A DNA stretch of 5,200 bases, from positions 1 to 5,200 of the IMG/VR virus record IMGVR_UViG_3300000357_000284. One strand, given 5' to 3'. The first letter of the stretch is position 1; each line of letters starts with the position of its first letter. This document shows positions 1 through 5,200 of the stretch, in pieces. Origin of the DNA: a virus (lineage: Duplodnaviria; Heunggongvirae; Uroviricota; Caudoviricetes). A program made the translations under genes and the position numbers. The notes beneath the pieces are model-generated. The model was given only the letters and a program-made list of their open reading frames with translations, searched no databases and was not told the origin of the DNA.

Positions 1-1248
1 ATGGCACTGAATATTCCATTCAGAAATGCGTACTATCGTTTTGCATCCAGTTACTCATTTCTCTTTTTTATTTCCTGGTCGCTGTGGTGGTCGTTATACG
101 CTATTTGGCTGAAAGGACATCTAGGATTAACAGGGACGGAATTAGGTACACTTTATTCGGTCAACCAGTTTACCAGCATTCTATTTATGATGTTCTACGG
201 CATCGTTCAGGATAAACTCGGTCTGAAGAAACCGCTCATCTGGTGTATGAGTTTCATTCTGGTCTTGACCGGACCGTTTATGATTTACGTTTATGAACCG
301 TTACTGCAAAGCAATTTTTCTGTAGGTCTAATTCTGGGGGCGCTCTTTTTTGGCCTGGGGTATCTGGCGGGATGCGGTTTGCTTGACAGCTTCACCGAAA
401 AAATGGCGCGAAATTTTCATTTCGAATATGGAACAGCGCGCGCCTGGGGATCTTTTGGCTATGCTATTGGCGCGTTCTTTGCCGGTATATTTTTTAGTAT
501 CAGTCCCCATATCAACTTCTGGTTGGTCTCGCTATTTGGCGCTGTATTTATGATGATCAACATGCGTTTTAAAGATAAGGATCACCAGTGCATAGCGGCG
601 GATGCGGGAGGGGTAAAAAAAGAGGATTTTATCGCAGTTTTCAAGGATCGAAACTTCTGGGTTTTCGTCATATTTATTGTGGGGACGTGGTCTTTCTATA
701 ACATTTTTGATCAACAACTCTTTCCTGTCTTTTATGCAGGTTTATTCGAATCACACGATGTAGGAACGCGCCTGTATGGTTATCTCAACTCATTCCAGGT
801 GGTACTCGAAGCGCTGTGCATGGCGATTATTCCTTTCTTTGTGAATCGGGTAGGGCCAAAAAATGCATTACTTATCGGTGTTGTGATTATGGCGTTGCGT
901 ATCCTTTCTTGCGCGCTGTTCGTTAACCCCTGGATTATTTCATTAGTGAAGCTGTTACATGCCATTGAGGTTCCACTTTGTGTCATATCCGTCTTCAAAT
1001 ACAGCGTGGCAAACTTTGATAAGCGCCTGTCGTCGACGATCTTTCTGATTGGTTTTCAAATTGCCAGTTCGCTTGGGATTGTGCTGCTTTCAACGCCGAC
1101 TGGGATACTCTTTGACCACGCAGGCTACCAGACAGTTTTCTTCGCAATTTCGGGTATTGTCTGCCTGATGTTGCTATTTGGCATTTTCTTCCTGAGTAAA
1201 AAACGCGAGCAAATAGTTATGGAAACGCCTGTACCTTCAGCAATATAG
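1..1248 (+). CDS. cscB: Sucrose:H+ symporter (MFS, LacY-type oligosaccharide/H+ symporter family), complete, 415 aa
   Basis: Full ORF from ATG 1-3 to TAG 1246-1248. Translation is strongly hydrophobic with about 12 membrane segments and LacY-family-like stretches (EYGTARAWGSFGY, FDQQLFPVF, GPKNALL, VFKY). N-terminus MALNIPFRNAYYRF and length match my recollection of E. coli CscB. The four ORFs in the track inside this span are out-of-frame or antisense artefacts. Confidence 0.9.
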   Translation: MALNIPFRNAYYRFASSYSFLFFISWSLWWSLYAIWLKGHLGLTGTELGTLYSVNQFTSILFMMFYGIVQDKLGLKKPLIWCMSFILVLTGPFMIYVYEPLLQSNFSVGLILGALFFGLGYLAGCGLLDSFTEKMARNFHFEYGTARAWGSFGYAIGAFFAGIFFSISPHINFWLVSLFGAVFMMINMRFKDKDHQCIAADAGGVKKEDFIAVFKDRNFWVFVIFIVGTWSFYNIFDQQLFPVFYAGLFESHDVGTRLYGYLNSFQVVLEALCMAIIPFFVNRVGPKNALLIGVVIMALRILSCALFVNPWIISLVKLLHAIEVPLCVISVFKYSVANFDKRLSSTIFLIGFQIASSLGIVLLSTPTGILFDHAGYQTVFFAISGIVCLMLLFGIFFLSKKREQIVMETPVPSAI

Positions 1249-1258
1249 ACGTAAACTT

Positions 1259-1300
1259 TTTCCGGTTGTTGTCGATATCTCCATATCCCTCAACCGGAAA
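1259..1300. repeat. Perfect 10-bp inverted repeat (TTTCCGGTTG ... CAACCGGAAA) with a 22-nt loop, 11 nt after the cscB stop; possible 3' stem-loop or protein-binding palindrome, not a canonical intrinsic terminator
   Basis: Arms at 1259-1268 and 1291-1300 are exact reverse complements. The flank is A-rich downstream and T-rich upstream on the + strand, so there is no U-tract after the stem on either strand. Confidence 0.4.
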
Positions 1301-1327
1301 ATAATAATACAAAAATGCTTAGCCCAA

Positions 1328-1564
1328 CTAATAATCACCTAATCCAAACGCCTCATTCATGTTCTGGTACAGTCGCTCAAATGTACTCCGGATACGCGGT
1401 TCGCTGATTTCCAGGACATTGTCGTCATTCAGCGACCTGTCCCGAGTATCACGGGCCTGCGAATTCATCAAGGAATGCATTGCAGAGTGAAGTATCGAGT
1501 CACGCCATATTTCGCTATCAGGATTCTGTATGATGGTTACATCGCCCAGCCCAGGGCTGTTTAG
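1328..1564 (-). pseudogene. 3'-terminal gene remnant: open frame of 78 codons ending ...ERLYQNMNEAFGLGDY, TAG at 1330-1328, no start codon or RBS at the 5' end; identity unknown
   Basis: Manual translation of the minus strand gives an uninterrupted frame from 1564 to 1331, bounded upstream by an in-frame TGA at 1567-1565. The first ATG is internal (1480-1478, giving only 50 aa) and has no Shine-Dalgarno. No tyrosine-recombinase motifs are visible. Confidence 0.3.
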
Positions 1565-1689
1565 TCATCAGCGCTTTCTGACAGTGCTGAGATTTCAACC
1601 TGTTGCAGTAAAAATGAGTAGATATAGGGCAAGTGTGCTGCCAAACCCATCTTTTACGGGGTGAAGGTAGATTTGGTTTGAAGGGTATC

Positions 1690-1704
1690 TGGTGTCCCCT
1701 GCAG
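1690..1704 (-). other. Prophage attachment-site core: 15-nt exact copy of the 3' end of tRNA-Arg argW (CTGCAGGGGACACCA on the minus strand), attR-type junction
   Basis: Minus-strand 1704-1690 reads CTGCAGGGGACACCA, identical to the acceptor 3' half plus CCA of argW as I remember it. The sequence diverges from the tRNA immediately upstream, so this is a partial copy and not a tRNA gene. An excisionase gene lies 74 bp away. Confidence 0.6.
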
Positions 1705-1761
1705 ACATCTACTTGACGCGGCAGGGGATTGATTGGAATGGTGTTTTTTAGATGTGAAAAA

Positions 1762-1783
1762 TATTTTACCCGCTATTTTACCC
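1762..1783. repeat. Tandem direct repeat TATTTTACCC x2 (1762-1771 and 1774-1783) overlapping the torI stop codon; candidate arm-type or excisionase binding sites
   Basis: Two exact 10-bp copies separated by 2 nt, 58-79 bp from the att core. A 7-bp inverted repeat ACATCTA/TAGATGT (1705-1711 and 1750-1756) lies in the same arm. Confidence 0.35.
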
Positions 1784-1978
1784 ATTGGCGCGGCTTAAGA
1801 GCTTATTTTTGAATTCACAATGGTCACGATATAACCATCTTGCTCGCCCGTGGATAACTTTGGCTTTTGGCAGGTCGCCGGACTTAATCCGGTCATAGAT
1901 GAAGGTTTTACCGAAGCCAGTATCGGCCATGATGAATTTCAAATCAACCAGTGAATCAGGTTGTAGTTCGTGTTGCAT
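1778..1978 (-). CDS. torI: AlpA/Xis-family winged-helix excisionase (recombination directionality factor), 66 aa; matches my recollection of TorI of the KplE1/CPS-53 prophage
   Basis: ATG 1978-1976 preceded by GGAG (1991-1988, 9-nt spacer); TAA at 1780-1778. The 66-aa product contains the AlpA-like core ADTGFGKTFIYDRIKSGDLPKAKVIHGRARWLYRD. It sits next to the argW-derived att core with no integrase nearby, which is the known KplE1 layout (int at attL, RDF at attR). Confidence 0.7.
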   Translation of the reverse strand: MQHELQPDSLVDLKFIMADTGFGKTFIYDRIKSGDLPKAKVIHGRARWLYRDHCEFKNKLLSRANG

Positions 1979-1983
1979 GAGTG

Positions 1984-2202
1984 CTATCTCCGAATAGGGA
2001 ATCGAACCTGCAAATCAGGCAATAAAAAACCGCCATCAGGCGGCTTGGTGTTTTTCAGTTCTTCAATTCGAATATTGGTTACGTCTGCATGTGCTATCTG
2101 CGCCCACAGCATCCAGTGGTCATAGCAGTCATTGATGTTCTCTGCTTCGATAACTCTGTTGAATGGCTCTCCATTCCATTCACCTGTAACTCGGAAGTGC
2201 AT
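1984..2202 (-). CDS. Doubtful 72-aa ORF (MHFRVTGEWNGEPFNRVIEAENINDCYDHW...), possibly a gene remnant; reads through the terminator hairpin and the tRNA-like block
   Basis: ATG 2202-2200 with GGAG at 2213-2210 (7-nt spacer), but the start lies inside the U-tail of an upstream terminator and the last ~25 codons are encoded by the 2030-2043 hairpin and the argW T-arm-like block. TAG at 1986-1984. Confidence 0.3.
   Translation of the reverse strand: MHFRVTGEWNGEPFNRVIEAENINDCYDHWMLWAQIAHADVTNIRIEELKNTKPPDGGFLLPDLQVRFPIRR
1998..2013 (-). other. 16-nt block identical to the argW T-arm region (TTGCAGGTTCGATTCC on the minus strand), separated from the 15-nt core by 293 bp that contain torI
   Basis: Minus-strand 2013-1998 reads TTGCAGGTTCGATTCC. 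In argW this sequence is directly followed by TGCAGGGGACACCA, but here it is followed by CTATTCGG, so no cloverleaf can form. It overlaps the torI RBS region. Confidence 0.4.
2024..2055 (-). terminator. Intrinsic terminator: GC hairpin CCGCC-ATCA-GGCGG (2030-2043) followed on the minus strand by TTTTTTATT; weaker in the + direction
   Basis: 5-bp GC stem with 4-nt loop; A-run 2024-2029 gives a U6 tract right after the stem on the minus transcript. On the + strand the T-run (2051-2055) is 7 nt from the stem. Confidence 0.55.
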
Positions 2203-2213
2203 TTATCATCTCC

Positions 2214-2240
2214 ATAAAACAAAACTCGCCGTAGCGAGTT
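2214..2240 (-). terminator. Intrinsic terminator: 7-bp stem AACTCGC / GCGAGTT (2223-2229 and 2234-2240) with 4-nt loop, followed on the minus strand by TTTTGTTTTAT
   Basis: Perfect 7-bp inverted repeat with tetraloop; T-rich tail on the minus strand (plus 2212-2222); about 70 nt downstream of the stop of the 2310-2570 gene. Confidence 0.5.
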
Positions 2241-2309
2241 CAGATAAAAGAAATCCCCGCGAGTGCGAGGATTGTTATTCACCTTTGACGGCAAGTTGCA
2301 GGTTAGCCA

Positions 2310-2570
2310 TTACCGCACCTCCAGTCTCCATACCGCCTGACCAATCCGGCTGGCATAGGTATCTTTGGATACTGCTCCGTCTTTAGCCAGCTCCATAAGA
2401 ATTTTGCGCAAATCTGCCGAACGCCATTCTTCATCAGGAAATTCCTTCTCCATTGCCAAGCGCAGATTCCAGGTTGCCATCCTGAATGGATATTCCCCGC
2501 CGAGAGCTTTATCTTGCAGGGCAGCCCGGGAACGCATCACCTGCAAAACCTTCTCTTTTACATCCATCAT
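2310..2570 (-). CDS. Hypothetical phage protein, about 86 aa (MMDVKEKVLQVMRSRAALQDKALGGEYPFRMATWNLRLAMEKEFPDEEWRSADLRKILMELAKDGAVSKDTYASRIGQAVWRLEVR)
   Basis: AGGAGG at 2580-2575 followed by ATGATG (2570-2565); the first ATG overlaps the TGA of the upstream gene (ATGA coupling). TAA at 2312-2310. The track ORF begins 18 codons earlier, inside the upstream gene, which I treat as an over-extension. Confidence 0.6.
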   Translation of the reverse strand: MMDVKEKVLQVMRSRAALQDKALGGEYPFRMATWNLRLAMEKEFPDEEWRSADLRKILMELAKDGAVSKDTYASRIGQAVWRLEVR

Positions 2571-3130
2571 TTCGCCTCCTGCGGCGGCTCTGGTAGCGGC
2601 ATCCAGTGGGTTACTCCATGCCATATACCAGTTAAGGTTTCAAACCTTGGCTCTCTGCCTTTCTGTGTCTTGGCATATTCATTCCTTGTATATACGCATT
2701 GTCTAACTGCATATCCATTCCATCCAATAACTGTTTGTCTAATTTCAGGCATTCGCTCACTACAGCTTATCCAACCATCCGGAGTTACCGGAGTTGGTCC
2801 ATCGAATTCTGGCATGTCAGGACCTTTTCTGATAGCTTTAGCCAGCTCCAGCGGGTCATCGTAAAGCCAGTCGCCAGTTTGTGGGTGATTTGCTTCTGCA
2901 AGCTGCGCAGCCCATTCAAGACCATCTTTTTGACCTTGGAGATAATCAAGCGGCAACTCTTCATGATTACTTGCAGGTTCTGCACTATCAGCTTCGCGCC
3001 GCTTCTGTAGCTCTGCTGCCATCGCTCTCACGACTTCAACTGGTGCCCTTGCAGCAAACTCTATGTTGGTGATCAGCTCATTAAGATATTGCTCGCTGGG
3101 ATACTGTTTCTTATTGGTAATAGTGGTCAT
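2567..3130 (-). CDS. Phage protein with C-terminal DUF551-like domain (GWISCSERMPE ... THWMPLPEPP), 187 aa
   Basis: ATG 3130-3128 overlaps the TGA (3129-3127) of the upstream gene. The C-terminal ~70 aa carry the W-I-S...LPE and HWMPLPEPP pattern I associate with DUF551 proteins of enterobacterial prophages. The N-terminal ~110 aa are acidic and unassigned. Confidence 0.75.
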   Translation of the reverse strand: MTTITNKKQYPSEQYLNELITNIEFAARAPVEVVRAMAAELQKRREADSAEPASNHEELPLDYLQGQKDGLEWAAQLAEANHPQTGDWLYDDPLELAKAIRKGPDMPEFDGPTPVTPDGWISCSERMPEIRQTVIGWNGYAVRQCVYTRNEYAKTQKGREPRFETLTGIWHGVTHWMPLPEPPQEAK

Positions 3131-3642
3131 GCCGCGTTTCCTTCTTTCTTATTAACAATTACACCGTCATATATTTCATTAAGGTGCCCTCTCAACTCCA
3201 TGCGCCTTAATGCAGATAACATGTAATCGCATTCAACCTGCTTATTTCCAGTAAATGGCTTATCGTCAGGATTACCCCAACAGCAATTACCCTTGGGCCA
3301 TCCATGTACTTTCCGTACTCTTCCGTTAACAACGTGAAGTAATCCCCAGCCGGGTGGTAAATCCTCAACTGAAATAATTCCCGGCTCACTAATAAAGAAT
3401 CGCCAGTCGCCCATTCCAAGAGACGGATTTTTACGAAAACGCTTTTTTCTATCTGCCAACAAGTCAGCACGAGAACATTTCGCCTCTATCAGGCATGATG
3501 CTGAATTTCTGAATCCCATAGCATCTGGCTGTTCTCCGGTACTGGTTACAGCTATAAAGCGGTCATGAAAACAAACCTTGAACTCGTTGCGCTTAAGGAA
3601 CTTATACGCAATCTGACAGAGTTCGCGGTGTGTTAACGCCAT
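3127..3642 (-). CDS. PD-(D/E)XK-fold nuclease-like protein, 171 aa from ATG 3642 (MALTHRELCQIAYKFLKRN...)
   Basis: Start ATG 3642-3640 is preceded by AAAGGAGAGTGAT. The track ORF starts 6 codons earlier and would translate through the RBS itself (MGKESD-MALT). Motif order fits the PD-(D/E)XK core: helix with E (HRELCQIAYKFLK), strand ending in PD (GEQPDAMGF), then E-x-K (CLIEAK). Family (VRR-NUC-like or MmcB-like) not resolved. Confidence 0.65.
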   Translation of the reverse strand: MALTHRELCQIAYKFLKRNEFKVCFHDRFIAVTSTGEQPDAMGFRNSASCLIEAKCSRADLLADRKKRFRKNPSLGMGDWRFFISEPGIISVEDLPPGWGLLHVVNGRVRKVHGWPKGNCCWGNPDDKPFTGNKQVECDYMLSALRRMELRGHLNEIYDGVIVNKKEGNAA

Positions 3643-3655
3643 ATCACTCTCCTTT
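3638..3655 (-). promoter_or_regulatory. Conserved translation-initiation module, copy 1 (minus strand AAAGGAGAGTGATATGGC), start of the nuclease-like gene
   Basis: 18-nt exact identity with copy 3 (4375-4392); contains SD GGAGAG, an in-module TGA and the ATG. Confidence 0.6.
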
Positions 3656-3678
3656 CCCATGTTGTCATGTGTTAGTCC

Positions 3679-3942
3679 TTATCCTGCTGTGCTTTCAACT
3701 GATGAGGGGAATAAAATCTTTTCATCAAATCCGGCATTCATATCATGGACAGCAACACACCAATCCATCGACGAACGATTATCAAGAGCCTCCATGATTT
3801 CATCCATGCGGCGCAGGTCATACAGGTAAATGTTTTTATCGCCAATGGTGTAAAAACCAATTTTTTTCGGTGATGGGCAGCGATCAAGAACTTCCTGTAA
3901 TTCGTTCAACCATGCCTGTTCTTTTTTTGTCAAAGTTGCCAT
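3679..3942 (-). CDS. Hypothetical small protein, 87 aa (MATLTKKEQAWLNELQEVLDRCPSPKKIGFYTIGDKNIYLYDLRRMDEIMEALDNRSSMDWCVAVHDMNAGFDEKILFPSSVESTAG)
   Basis: ATG 3942-3940 is 1 nt after the TGA (3946-3944) of the upstream gene and is preceded by AAGGAAAG. TAA at 3681-3679. The track ORF starts 30 codons further upstream without an RBS. Confidence 0.55.
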   Translation of the reverse strand: MATLTKKEQAWLNELQEVLDRCPSPKKIGFYTIGDKNIYLYDLRRMDEIMEALDNRSSMDWCVAVHDMNAGFDEKILFPSSVESTAG

Positions 3943-3943
3943 A

Positions 3944-4162
3944 TCAGCTTTCCTTATACGGATTAATTTTATTGTGCAGTGTGTTGAACGACGCCCATAC
4001 CACGTCGTTATACAATTCAATAACTGGCTCAATTACTTTTCCGATTATCCAGGCCAGTAATAGCGGGGATATCGGTATCATCAACACGATAAACAGAATG
4101 AGAAACAAAAATTCTATCGCTCTACTTTTTCGCGGATATTCTTTTCTGAATAATGTAGGCAC
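3944..4162 (-). CDS. Small single-pass membrane protein, 72 aa, GTG start (MPTLFRKEYPRKSRAIEFLFLILFIVLMIPISPLLLAWIIGKVIEPVIELYNDVVWASFNTLHNKINPYKES)
   Basis: GTG 4162-4160 preceded by AAAGGAGAGTGAT and 1 nt after the TGA (4166-4164) of the upstream gene. One 25-residue hydrophobic helix after a basic N-terminus (positive-inside). The ATG in another frame at 4164-4162 gives only 16 codons. Confidence 0.5.
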   Translation of the reverse strand: MPTLFRKEYPRKSRAIEFLFLILFIVLMIPISPLLLAWIIGKVIEPVIELYNDVVWASFNTLHNKINPYKES

Positions 4163-4175
4163 ATCACTCTCCTTT
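4160..4175 (-). promoter_or_regulatory. Conserved translation-initiation module, copy 2 (minus strand AAAGGAGAGTGATGTG), stop of the Cys-rich gene and GTG start of the membrane-protein gene
   Basis: 15 of 16 positions identical to copies 1 and 3; the single change converts ATG to GTG. Confidence 0.55.
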
Positions 4176-4379
4176 GTTGCTCCTCAAAATTTTATGCCCT
4201 GGCGCAAAAGCACGCGTTTTGTCGGCGCTTATTCGCCACCCATCTTTACGTGCCTCTTTTGCACAGCCAGCCCATGACGTACCGATATACTCACCGAAGT
4301 CTGGCACTGGATATACACCTTCCGTACACTGGCGGCAGTCACAATAGAGATGCATGGTGTAACTTGCGGCAATAGCCAT
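4164..4379 (-). CDS. Cys-rich small protein, 71 aa, putative zinc-binding (HLYCDCRQC ... GC); family unknown
   Basis: ATG 4379-4377 preceded by AAAGGAGAGTGAT and 1 nt after the TGA (4383-4381) of the upstream gene. C-x-C-x2-C cluster plus a fourth Cys 22 residues later. The track ORF starts 24 codons upstream, inside the preceding gene. Confidence 0.55.
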   Translation of the reverse strand: MAIAASYTMHLYCDCRQCTEGVYPVPDFGEYIGTSWAGCAKEARKDGWRISADKTRAFAPGHKILRSNKGE

Positions 4380-4392
4380 ATCACTCTCCTTT
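4375..4392 (-). promoter_or_regulatory. Conserved translation-initiation module, copy 3 (minus strand AAAGGAGAGTGATATGGC), stop of the basic-protein gene and start of the Cys-rich gene
   Basis: 18-nt exact identity with copy 1; the TGA inside the module is the real stop of the upstream gene here. Confidence 0.6.
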
Positions 4393-4569
4393 AGTACGCA
4401 AGTGGTTTTTCCAGCGGTTTTGCGCCGCGCTGGGCTTTTTGCAAAAACCACAATCCATCATCCCGTAATGTTTCATTAACCCCATCCGTCGGTTGCTGAG
4501 TCTCACCCACTGCCATACGCCTGGATCGTTTCTGCGAACTAACAGAATCTTTGCTTTACGGTTTTTCAT
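4381..4569 (-). CDS. Small basic protein, 62 aa (MKNRKAKILLVRRNDPGVWQWVRLSNRRMGLMKHYGMMDCGFCKKPSAAQNRWKNHLRTKGE)
   Basis: ATG 4569-4567 preceded by GGAGAG (7-nt spacer); overlaps the 3' end of the Ea22-like gene by 14 nt. The track start at 4662 is a TTG without RBS. Net charge is strongly positive, suggesting nucleic-acid binding. Confidence 0.45.
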   Translation of the reverse strand: MKNRKAKILLVRRNDPGVWQWVRLSNRRMGLMKHYGMMDCGFCKKPSAAQNRWKNHLRTKGE

Positions 4570-5200
4570 CGCTTTGCTCTCCTGCGTCTCCTTTGATGCG
4601 AATGCCAGGGGCGCGTGGCACATTAACTTCCACGATGCGCACAGTTGGTTTGTACATCTCAATCGCTGTCAGCCAGTCAGCTCCTGTCATGCGCTTTTCC
4701 GCATCGCCATTAGTCCACTGAACCGGTACACCAATAGCCTTCATCGCGATTTCTATTTCCCCGGCAATGGCGCTTTTTCCGCAACCAGTAAAACCAGATA
4801 CAACGACAAGAACTTCGCCTTTGGCTGGTTTTATTTCCCGTGCTTCCAGTTCTGCTATGCGCTTCTCTGCGGATTCCAGCGCCGCAACCAATTCGTCTAC
4901 AGTTCCGGCAGCTTGCAGTGCGTAATCGGTAATAGCCATCTCATGATCAATTTCAGTACCGTTCTCATTCGTTGAGGTGATAGCAAAATAATCAGAGTCG
5001 ATTTCGTTATCAGCTAAGTGGCGTAGCGTATCGGCAACAAGCCGGCCGTTTTCGATTAGCAGCTTCCCAACCGTAAGAGCAATTTCCTCGTTCTCCTGGT
5101 CGCGGGATTTGATGTACTGCTGGTTTCTTTCCCGTTCATCCAGAAGCGCCAGCACAGTAGCCGGATTGGCTGCGGCGATGAATTCAGCATTGGCCTGCTG
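4556..5200 (-). CDS. Ea22-like early-region phage protein, 5'-truncated by the window edge (at least 214 codons); C-terminal part contains a Walker-A-like GFTGCGKS
   Basis: The frame is open from 5200 down to TAA 4558-4556; the track start at 5155 is an internal GTG. The N-terminal stretch FIAAANPATVLALLDERERN followed by a coiled-coil-like region resembles Ead/Ea22-like proteins as I remember them. Codons for G-F-T-G-C-G-K-S map to 4795-4772 after a hydrophobic strand VLVVVS. Confidence 0.6.
   Translation of the reverse strand, partial: QQANAEFIAAANPATVLALLDERERNQQYIKSRDQENEEIALTVGKLLIENGRLVADTLRHLADNEIDSDYFAITSTNENGTEIDHEMAITDYALQAAGTVDELVAALESAEKRIAELEAREIKPAKGEVLVVVSGFTGCGKSAIAGEIEIAMKAIGVPVQWTNGDAEKRMTGADWLTAIEMYKPTVRIVEVNVPRAPGIRIKGDAGEQSDEKP

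Follow-up and report, generated by a model that had tools for sequence, protein, structure and literature searches.

A five-gene stretch of a lambdoid/P22-like prophage that includes an MmcB-like nuclease gene is probably a run of independent modules

Gene content and setting of the 3127–4569 stretch

The DNA analysed here, hereafter the window, comprises 5,200 nucleotides (nt) of a Caudoviricetes virus (positions 1 to 5,200 of IMG/VR record IMGVR_UViG_3300000357_000284), and its positions 3127–4569 hold, on the minus strand, five small genes that we denote g1 to g5 in their order of transcription, the fifth of which encodes a nuclease-like protein. An original prediction, made without database searches, had taken the five for a translationally coupled cassette and for a candidate undescribed accessory system, possibly serving defence or anti-defence. 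Its gene calls, with 1-nt gaps and a 36-nt spacer, agree with the sequence and with the list of open reading frames (ORFs), and are as follows (lengths in amino acids, aa).

4381–4569, minus strand: g1, 62 aa
4164–4379, minus strand: g2, 71 aa
3944–4162, minus strand: g3, 72 aa, GTG start
3679–3942, minus strand: g4, 87 aa
3643–3678, minus strand: spacer of 36 nt between g4 and g5
3127–3642, minus strand: g5, 171 aa, PD-(D/E)XK nuclease-like
2567–3130, minus strand: DUF551 gene (PF04448, E 6e-16), with an ATGA overlap with the g5 stop

The order of transcription is Ea22-like gene, g1, g2, g3, g4, 36-nt spacer, g5, DUF551 gene, a 104-aa gene, a 72-aa gene and TorI. The Ea22-like gene overlaps g1 by 14 nt; the junctions g1/g2, g2/g3 and g3/g4 read TGAtATG, TGAtGTG and TGAtATG, respectively, and constitute the 1-nt gaps, whilst the predicted ATGA coupling of g5 to the DUF551 gene is present as an overlap in the sequence. 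Variable sites among homologues are in excess at third codon positions in five of the five genes, and each gene belongs to a recurrent phage protein family (PHROGs, function unknown); this third-position excess and the recurrence in phages indicate that g1–g5 are real genes.

The window takes in the right end of a KplE1/P22-like prophage of the argW type, in whose early-left operon the cassette lies. An Ea22-like gene (PF13935) is located upstream and a TorI-type excisionase gene downstream, on the same strand, which places the five genes in the exo-xis/ea region and in the slot between Ea22-like gene and excisionase of an argW-type prophage, as had been predicted. Matching E. coli genomes have the same neighbourhood (cscB, torI, DUF551, Ea22-like, then RecT and Kil). 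A promoter and terminator scan of the minus strand of 3127–4569 gave no internal promoter-like or terminator-like site, on which grounds g1–g5 would be co-transcribed within the long early-left operon from pL.

Association of the five genes across phages and genomes

IMG/VR searches were seeded with each of the five proteins, and the ten window proteins were mapped on 398 loci; each seeded set consists of the 80 closest relatives, many of them near-identical E. coli prophages. The gene order of the window occurs in none of the 398 loci, and among 50,697 phage records there is none that covers 80% or more of the cassette at 3127–4569. Some part of the cassette is matched by 2,034 of 5,426 complete E. 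coli genomes, only four of which cover at least 80% of it, all four on P1-like plasmids and in another gene order than the window; two of these four reach 99% coverage, with the order g1 > g5 > g2 > g3 > g4 on P1-like plasmids of ~95 kb. All five genes stand together on a single viral contig among the 398 loci, in the plasmid order.

Genes g3 and g4 were never found within 5 kb of the nuclease gene in the 80 loci with a 98–99% identical nuclease. The gene upstream of the nuclease in the 80 g5-seeded loci is g1 in about half and otherwise one of many different Ea22-like genes, and the loci seeded with g1, g2 and g3 display dozens of different gene combinations. Gene g3 directly precedes g4 in 76 of the 80 g4-seeded loci.

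Among g4 homologues at 53–66% identity, those of Edwardsiella come after an Ea22-like gene, those of Pectobacterium after a P2-type replication gene, and those of Klebsiella are located in nin regions; in these three genera none has a neighbour of the DUF4014 family, to which g3 belongs (see below). Homologues of g5 at 61–77% identity lie in the nin regions of Morganella, Klebsiella and Serratia prophages, where they adjoin NinB, NinE, NinG, theta, dATP/dGTP pyrophosphohydrolase or Dam; in Cronobacter they are located in the early-left operon, beside SSB or an Ea22-like gene. The distant g5 homologues of these four genera are without g1–g4 and without any g1-like neighbour. Both the g3 > g4 and the g1 > g5 adjacency are lost with divergence and are common only among near-identical sequences.

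A conserved co-occurrence and order, such as a multi-gene system should show, was looked for and was not found: the five-gene set and its order are essentially unique to the window. The proposal of one accessory system is contradicted by the absence of the order from the 398 loci, by the lack of any phage record with at least 80% coverage, and by the unrelated neighbours of the distant homologues. The idea of a defence module gained nothing from a profile search of PADLOC-DB v2, which gave no match at E ≤ 1 for any of g1–g5; the only PADLOC match in the window is that of the excisionase to mad1, an excisionase-like model.

A linker shared by many unrelated genes

An 18-nt sequence, AAAGGAGAGTGATATGGC, here called linker J, has three matches in the window, against 0.01 expected by chance.

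4375–4392, minus strand: copy 1, exact; last g1 codons (KGE-stop), Shine-Dalgarno sequence and g2 start
4158–4175, minus strand: copy 2, AAAGGAGAGTGATGTGCC, two mismatches; g2 end and GTG start of g3
3638–3655, minus strand: copy 3, exact; Shine-Dalgarno sequence and start of g5, with no upstream gene ending in it here

Linker J is made up of the codons that end the preceding gene (K-G-E-stop), a Shine-Dalgarno sequence, a single base, and the ATG or GTG of the next gene plus two more bases; its general form is AAAGGAGAGTGAT(A/G)TG. It lies upstream of the nuclease gene in 80 of 80 related loci, whichever gene precedes it there, mostly as the exact sequence and in the rest as a 1-base variant. 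Among the fetched loci linker J precedes at least ten different gene families (g2, g3, g4, g5, a g1 variant, several DUF551 types and others), many different ...KGE proteins end in it, and it is found in lambdoid, P22-like and P1-like elements.

Because this generic linker stands in front of many unrelated genes, the coupling signal is no evidence of functional linkage, and tight gene spacing is a generic property of the region, not specific to the g1–g5 set. The close packing on which the idea of a translationally coupled cassette was built is real, but it arises from a linker that many unrelated genes have in common. Linker J probably gives generic translational coupling between whichever modules adjoin.

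The breakpoints in alignments of the window with its relatives fall on linker J or within ~15 nt of gene boundaries, and copy 1 is itself the breakpoint between window segments in two related loci (L002 and L130). The linker probably also offers a short homology through which phage recombination could swap, delete, duplicate or permute modules.

The g4–g5 junction

In ~110 loci with g4, a DUF551-type gene beginning ATGAC(C/A)AC starts 13 nt past the g4 stop. The window has the same TAAGGACTAACACATGACAAC after g4 as these loci, followed by ATGGG, the linker and g5; the spacer at 3643–3678 reads TAAGGACTAACAC, then ATGACAAC, which is the start of the DUF551-type gene usual after g4, and then switches to linker J. 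At its other end, g5 finishes in ATGA plus CCACTATTACC, the start of the DUF551 gene. The truncated DUF551 start after g4, taken with the DUF551 start at the g5 end, suggests that a nuclease module was inserted at a DUF551 start, and we interpret the 36-nt spacer as a recombination scar: the nuclease gene would have been placed after g4 at the DUF551 start codon, leaving these 36 nt behind.

The exact g4–g5 joint is found in 21 of the 5,426 complete E. coli genomes, on different elements, including the argW prophage of W46, the thrW prophage of CEA601S and plasmids of ~60 kb. The CEA601S thrW prophage (L410, 3528–5478) carries two intact nuclease copies within 1.8 kb, in the order g1 > g5 > 143-aa gene > g4 > g5, an arrangement that looks like a duplication via the shared linker.

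The nuclease encoded by g5

The 171-aa protein has the restriction-endonuclease-like core fold (alpha-beta-beta-beta-alpha-beta) of its superfamily, with an acidic residue on beta2 and (D/E)-x-K on beta3 as is characteristic of PD-(D/E)XK enzymes; this fold and the conserved D...ExK motif bear out the PD-(D/E)XK assignment made originally. Across 27 sequences, the most distant of them 59% identical, the putative catalytic residues D40, E53 and K55 do not vary, nor do D27, E37, R58, D60 and D64. Over most of its length the protein is structurally similar to 3dnx (SPO1766), which also ranks first when the g5 profile is compared with the PDB, but with an E of 0.62; the block E-x-K-x-S-R-x-D-(F/L) is aligned in that comparison. 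Phage proteins annotated as MmcB-like are among the BFVD fold matches. The fold matches, together with the active-site block aligned with 3dnx, indicate that the PD-(D/E)XK call is correct and can be sharpened to MmcB-like. No match to Pfam PF06319 (gathering threshold 22 bits) was obtained at E ≤ 1, and a distant member of the g5 family, P0225, scores 13.5 bits against the same cut-off of 22; g5 therefore has an MmcB-like fold and lies outside the Pfam family boundary.

Relatives of g5 form 321 close clusters across Enterobacterales, and the wider family has 3,194 representatives at E ≤ 1e-3 in a 50%-identity library, none of them with a Pfam family; relatives are also present in virulent Ackermannviridae and Vibrio phages. 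We predict that the g5 product cuts DNA as a stand-alone, Mg2+-dependent endonuclease of the PD-(D/E)XK superfamily, nearest to the MmcB-like proteins. It would most likely work without partners, on DNA that is damaged or branched, and assist the phage in recombination, repair or replication, an activity and a substrate that are suggested by the MmcB-like fold and by the recombination and replication genes beside its homologues.

The RefSeq/PGAP annotation of the nuclease gene is confined to 179 nt at its 5′ end, called a 'frameshifted' pseudogene, with the remainder unannotated or 'incomplete'. The loci concerned are the window (3127–3642), L001 (6633–7166), L002 (7110–7638), L409 (3528–4061) and L410 (3528–4061 and 4773–5301). 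These labels had suggested that the nuclease is often decayed, a view that we dropped since direct translation gave an intact 171-aa nuclease ORF in every 'frameshifted' locus checked. The g5 family appears to be systematically mis-annotated as a pseudogene, which may explain why NCBIfam and Pfam have no model for it.

The small proteins g1–g4

The proteins described originally as a 62-aa basic, a 71-aa Cys-rich and a 72-aa single-transmembrane protein have these properties (isoelectric point (pI) 11.3, four Cys and one hydrophobic segment, respectively). The statement that no small protein matches a nameable family holds for g1, g2 and g4, which are without a Pfam family, but not for g3, which is DUF4014; all five proteins match PHROGs of unknown function. 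A scan of all ten minus-strand window proteins gave no Pfam match for g1, g2, g4 or g5 and no NCBIfam match for any of g1–g5, and sequence searches of the PDB with g1, g2, g4 and g5 returned chance-level matches only (E ≥ 0.6). The Pfam, PHROGs, NCBIfam and PADLOC scans attach no characterised function to any of the five, in agreement with the earlier view.

The product of g1 (phrog_1380; pI 11.3) is very basic. In 50 length-conserved variants its basic termini are conserved (N-terminal MKNRKAK..., C-terminal ...SAAQNRWKNHLRTKGE) and the middle is variable, with 18, 19 and 36 variable sites at the first, second and third codon positions, respectively. The hypervariable middle had raised the suspicion that g1 is non-coding; this was rejected, as the 50 variants retain an ORF of 58–67 aa with conserved termini and third positions vary most. 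Two PHROG profiles contain g1 within longer proteins: in PHROG 9263 (230 aa) positions 1–61 match g1 and positions 62–230 match g5, and PHROG 12350 (155 aa) ends in g1. Both probably derive from fused or read-through gene calls where g1 and g5 adjoin across the linker.

The g2 protein (phrog_926) is the equivalent of 933W L0068. Among 14 sequences C13, C15 and C18 are invariant, H62 is nearly invariant and C39 is not conserved, with 9, 5 and 32 variable sites at the three codon positions. A CCCH zinc site is plausible, given the three invariant Cys and the nearly invariant His.

The g3 protein (phrog_1832) belongs to Pfam DUF4014 (PF13198; E 3e-24, 85.7 bits against a cut-off of 23.2), its residues 2–71 aligning with positions 2–71 of the 72-position model, and is the equivalent of 933W L0067 and epsilon15 gp46. 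It has a single hydrophobic segment at residues 18–36 (mean Kyte-Doolittle value 2.9) and is present in 125 phage records. The labels 'released from the phage upon host infection' and 'acetyltransferase inhibitor', carried by some records of the family, were set aside as annotations without support; a literature search for DUF4014 gave no paper. The g4 protein (phrog_1714) is acidic and soluble, with a confident alpha/beta structure model that has no known structural relative.

Interpretation of the locus

We consider it likely that 3127–4569, part of the early-left (pL) accessory region of a lambdoid/P22-like prophage, holds five independent single-gene modules, with g5 as a stand-alone nuclease. 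Genes g1–g4 would encode separate small accessory proteins: g1 a basic one, g2 one that possibly binds zinc, g3 a membrane protein of the DUF4014 family and g4 an acidic protein of alpha/beta type. The shared linker would connect each module to its successor, and the present order would stem from recombination events at linker sites. The window is a new combination of known module kinds in a well-known mosaic region.

Several points weigh against this interpretation. The closest-relative sampling includes near-identical prophages, so that the counts are not phylogenetically independent. The high frequency of g3 > g4 (76 of 80) and of g1 > g5 (about half) among close relatives leaves room for pairwise functional links. 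Recombination promoted by the linker is deduced from the positions of breakpoints, and the putative repair or recombination role of g5 draws solely on the MmcB-like fold similarity and the neighbours. The spread of the g4–g5 joint over several kinds of element in 21 genomes could mean selection rather than hitch-hiking.

The hypothesis of a five-gene system, in which the PD-(D/E)XK protein of g5 would be the effector of an undescribed defence or anti-defence system and the other proteins its sensors or regulators, is largely refuted by the distribution data, and we regard it as highly improbable. The tight same-strand packing, the nuclease fold with its intact active site, a transmembrane and a Cys-rich protein nearby, and a slot in which lambdoid phages carry accessory genes would all suit such a system, as would the fact that P1-like plasmids and one viral contig carry all five genes, albeit in another order than the window. 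Its order in the window is absent, however, from the 398 viral loci and from all phage records searched, the full set occurs in only four of the 2,034 E. coli genomes with a match to some part of the cassette, neither g3 nor g4 lies near g5 in any of 80 close loci, and distant homologues of g5 and g4 have wholly different neighbours. The occurrence of g5 relatives in virulent phages and the lack of a PADLOC match also argue against it; the generic linker explains the spacing, and the g4–g5 junction is better read as a recombination scar. Two functional pairs, g3 with g4 and g1 with g5 (for example g1, possibly nucleic-acid-binding, as a regulator or antitoxin and g5 as an effector), seem rather improbable to us. 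The g3 > g4 adjacency in the g4-seeded loci, the finding that g1 immediately precedes g5 in about half of the g5-seeded loci and in many of those seeded with g1, and the 230-aa profile of PHROG 9263, whose first 61 positions correspond to g1 and the remainder to g5, are in keeping with such pairs. The genes are nevertheless 98–99% identical in these loci, such that adjacency may reflect recent common descent; g4 is present in fewer than half of the g3-seeded loci, the downstream gene in g1-seeded loci is g2 about as often as g5, and g5 often follows Ea22-like genes without g1. In the window itself the pairs are arranged otherwise, with three genes between g1 and g5, and the more distant g5 homologues (61–77% identity) are without a g1-like neighbour, as those of g4 are without a DUF4014 neighbour.

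That g5 by itself is a conflict gene, whether a nuclease directed against host, superinfecting-phage or plasmid DNA (takeover or exclusion) or a counter to host defence, is possible though unlikely. It is an optional mobile module in the accessory regions of many temperate and virulent phages, and early expression is expected from its position in pL or pR operons; against this, in nin regions it adjoins genes accessory to recombination and replication (NinB, NinG, theta, Dam), no immunity or partner gene is conserved beside it, and PADLOC has no match. Rather improbable, too, is that either the g5 family represents a novel class of conflict nuclease in phages, serving exclusion or counter-defence and perhaps modulated by g1, or linker J is a dedicated cassette-exchange site of an integron-style shuffling array. 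With the five genes most likely being independent modules, the failure of the multi-gene framing spares experiments on a false operon-level hypothesis. It also warns against taking the tight spacing and seeming translational coupling of genes in phage accessory regions as evidence of functional linkage. What the locus offers instead is a stand-alone MmcB-like nuclease family, widespread in temperate and virulent phages and without a curated model, which is a tractable target for biochemistry.

Comparison with known phage systems

The early-left accessory region goes by the name exo-xis in lambda and the Stx phages, and by ea in P22. Like the genes known from that region, those of the window belong to the pL operon and follow the recombination genes and an Ea22-like gene, with xis further downstream. 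In 933W the counterparts of g2 and g3 are found at the equivalent place, and epsilon15 has Ead/Ea22-like, then DUF4014, then DUF551. The genes after ea22 form a variable set (PMC8614690), and the early operons of P22-like phages are highly mosaic (PMC2629481). By contrast, g1–g5 are not among the studied exo-xis genes (orf60a, orf61, orf63, orf73, ea22, ea8.5), a paper on lambdoid co-transfer (PMC9836094) mentions none of them, and their combination and order were not found in the collections searched.

In Caulobacter, MmcB has been described as an SOS-regulated PD-(D/E)XK endonuclease with a protective role against mitomycin C (PMC9578287). In the active-site block, D-x(n)-E-x-K-x-S-R-x-D-(F/L)-x-x-D, g5 aligns with the MmcB-like proteins (PF06319, 3dnx), but it falls below the Pfam model, with no match at E ≤ 1, and has an additional conserved C-terminal helical part (KPFxxNKQxECDY...RRM..RG); it is moreover a phage-borne, predicted nuclease, whereas MmcB is encoded by an SOS-regulated chromosomal gene.

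Linker J resembles the boundary sequences of a model of modular phage evolution that is outlined in PMC3233612, with citations of Susskind & Botstein 1978 and of Clark et al. 2001 (on HK620): it is short, conserved and located at the boundaries of unrelated neighbouring genes, with breakpoints on it; its role in recombination is suggested here by the sequence comparisons. The linker is a clean, quantified case of an 18-nt Shine-Dalgarno/stop/start sequence common to at least ten unrelated families, and it bears on the old question of whether mosaicism is driven by recombination at boundary sequences or by random illegitimate recombination plus selection.

The nin-region genes (NinB/Orf, NinG/Rap) are likewise optional, densely packed and often overlapping small early genes, several of them recombination accessories, and nin regions of Klebsiella, Serratia and Morganella prophages harbour g5 and g4 homologues. 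The window genes differ in lying in the early-left and not the early-right operon, and the named Nin proteins have no sequence relationship to g1–g5.

Neighbouring genes and minor observations

The prophage genes all lie on the minus strand, from ~1778 to the right end of the window. The remaining annotated features are as follows.

4556–5200 (ORF runs past the window end), minus strand: 3′ part of an Ea22-like gene (PF13935, E 3.8e-08; ead/Ea22-like label in E. coli genomes)
1984–2202, minus strand: 72-aa ORF, relative of lambda Orf55 (PHROG 676, position)
1778–1978, minus strand: TorI-type excisionase of the KplE1/argW prophage family, end marker of the early-left operon (phrog_66; torI label in matching E. 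coli genomes)
1–1248, plus strand: CscB, sucrose permease (ORF list, E. coli genome annotation)

The C-terminal ~80 residues of the Ea22-like protein (window 4556–4900, minus strand) contain a Walker-A-like, or P-loop-like, GFTGCGKS motif, and this part has weak, sub-threshold matches to APS kinase and AAA P-loop families. The C-terminal domain with this motif recurs at the end of several otherwise dissimilar Ea22-like proteins.

Scans of the whole window against Rfam and for tRNA genes gave no match. The interval between cscB and torI (1249–1777) has no tRNA gene; the prophage end and attR are located here, adjoining the sucrose (csc) island and not an intact argW. A 50-aa ORF at 1328–1480 (minus strand) in this interval carries the RefSeq label of a DUF4942 domain protein fragment.

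Residues 1–52 of the 72-aa ORF at 1984–2202 match the 55-aa PHROG 676, and a tblastn search gave a match in the int-xis-exo region of lambda. Orf55 of lambda has been proposed, in one modelling paper, to be a T7 Gp2-like modulator of RNA polymerase (PMC8614690). Within the 3′ extension of the window ORF lies a terminator-like hairpin (2046–2027).

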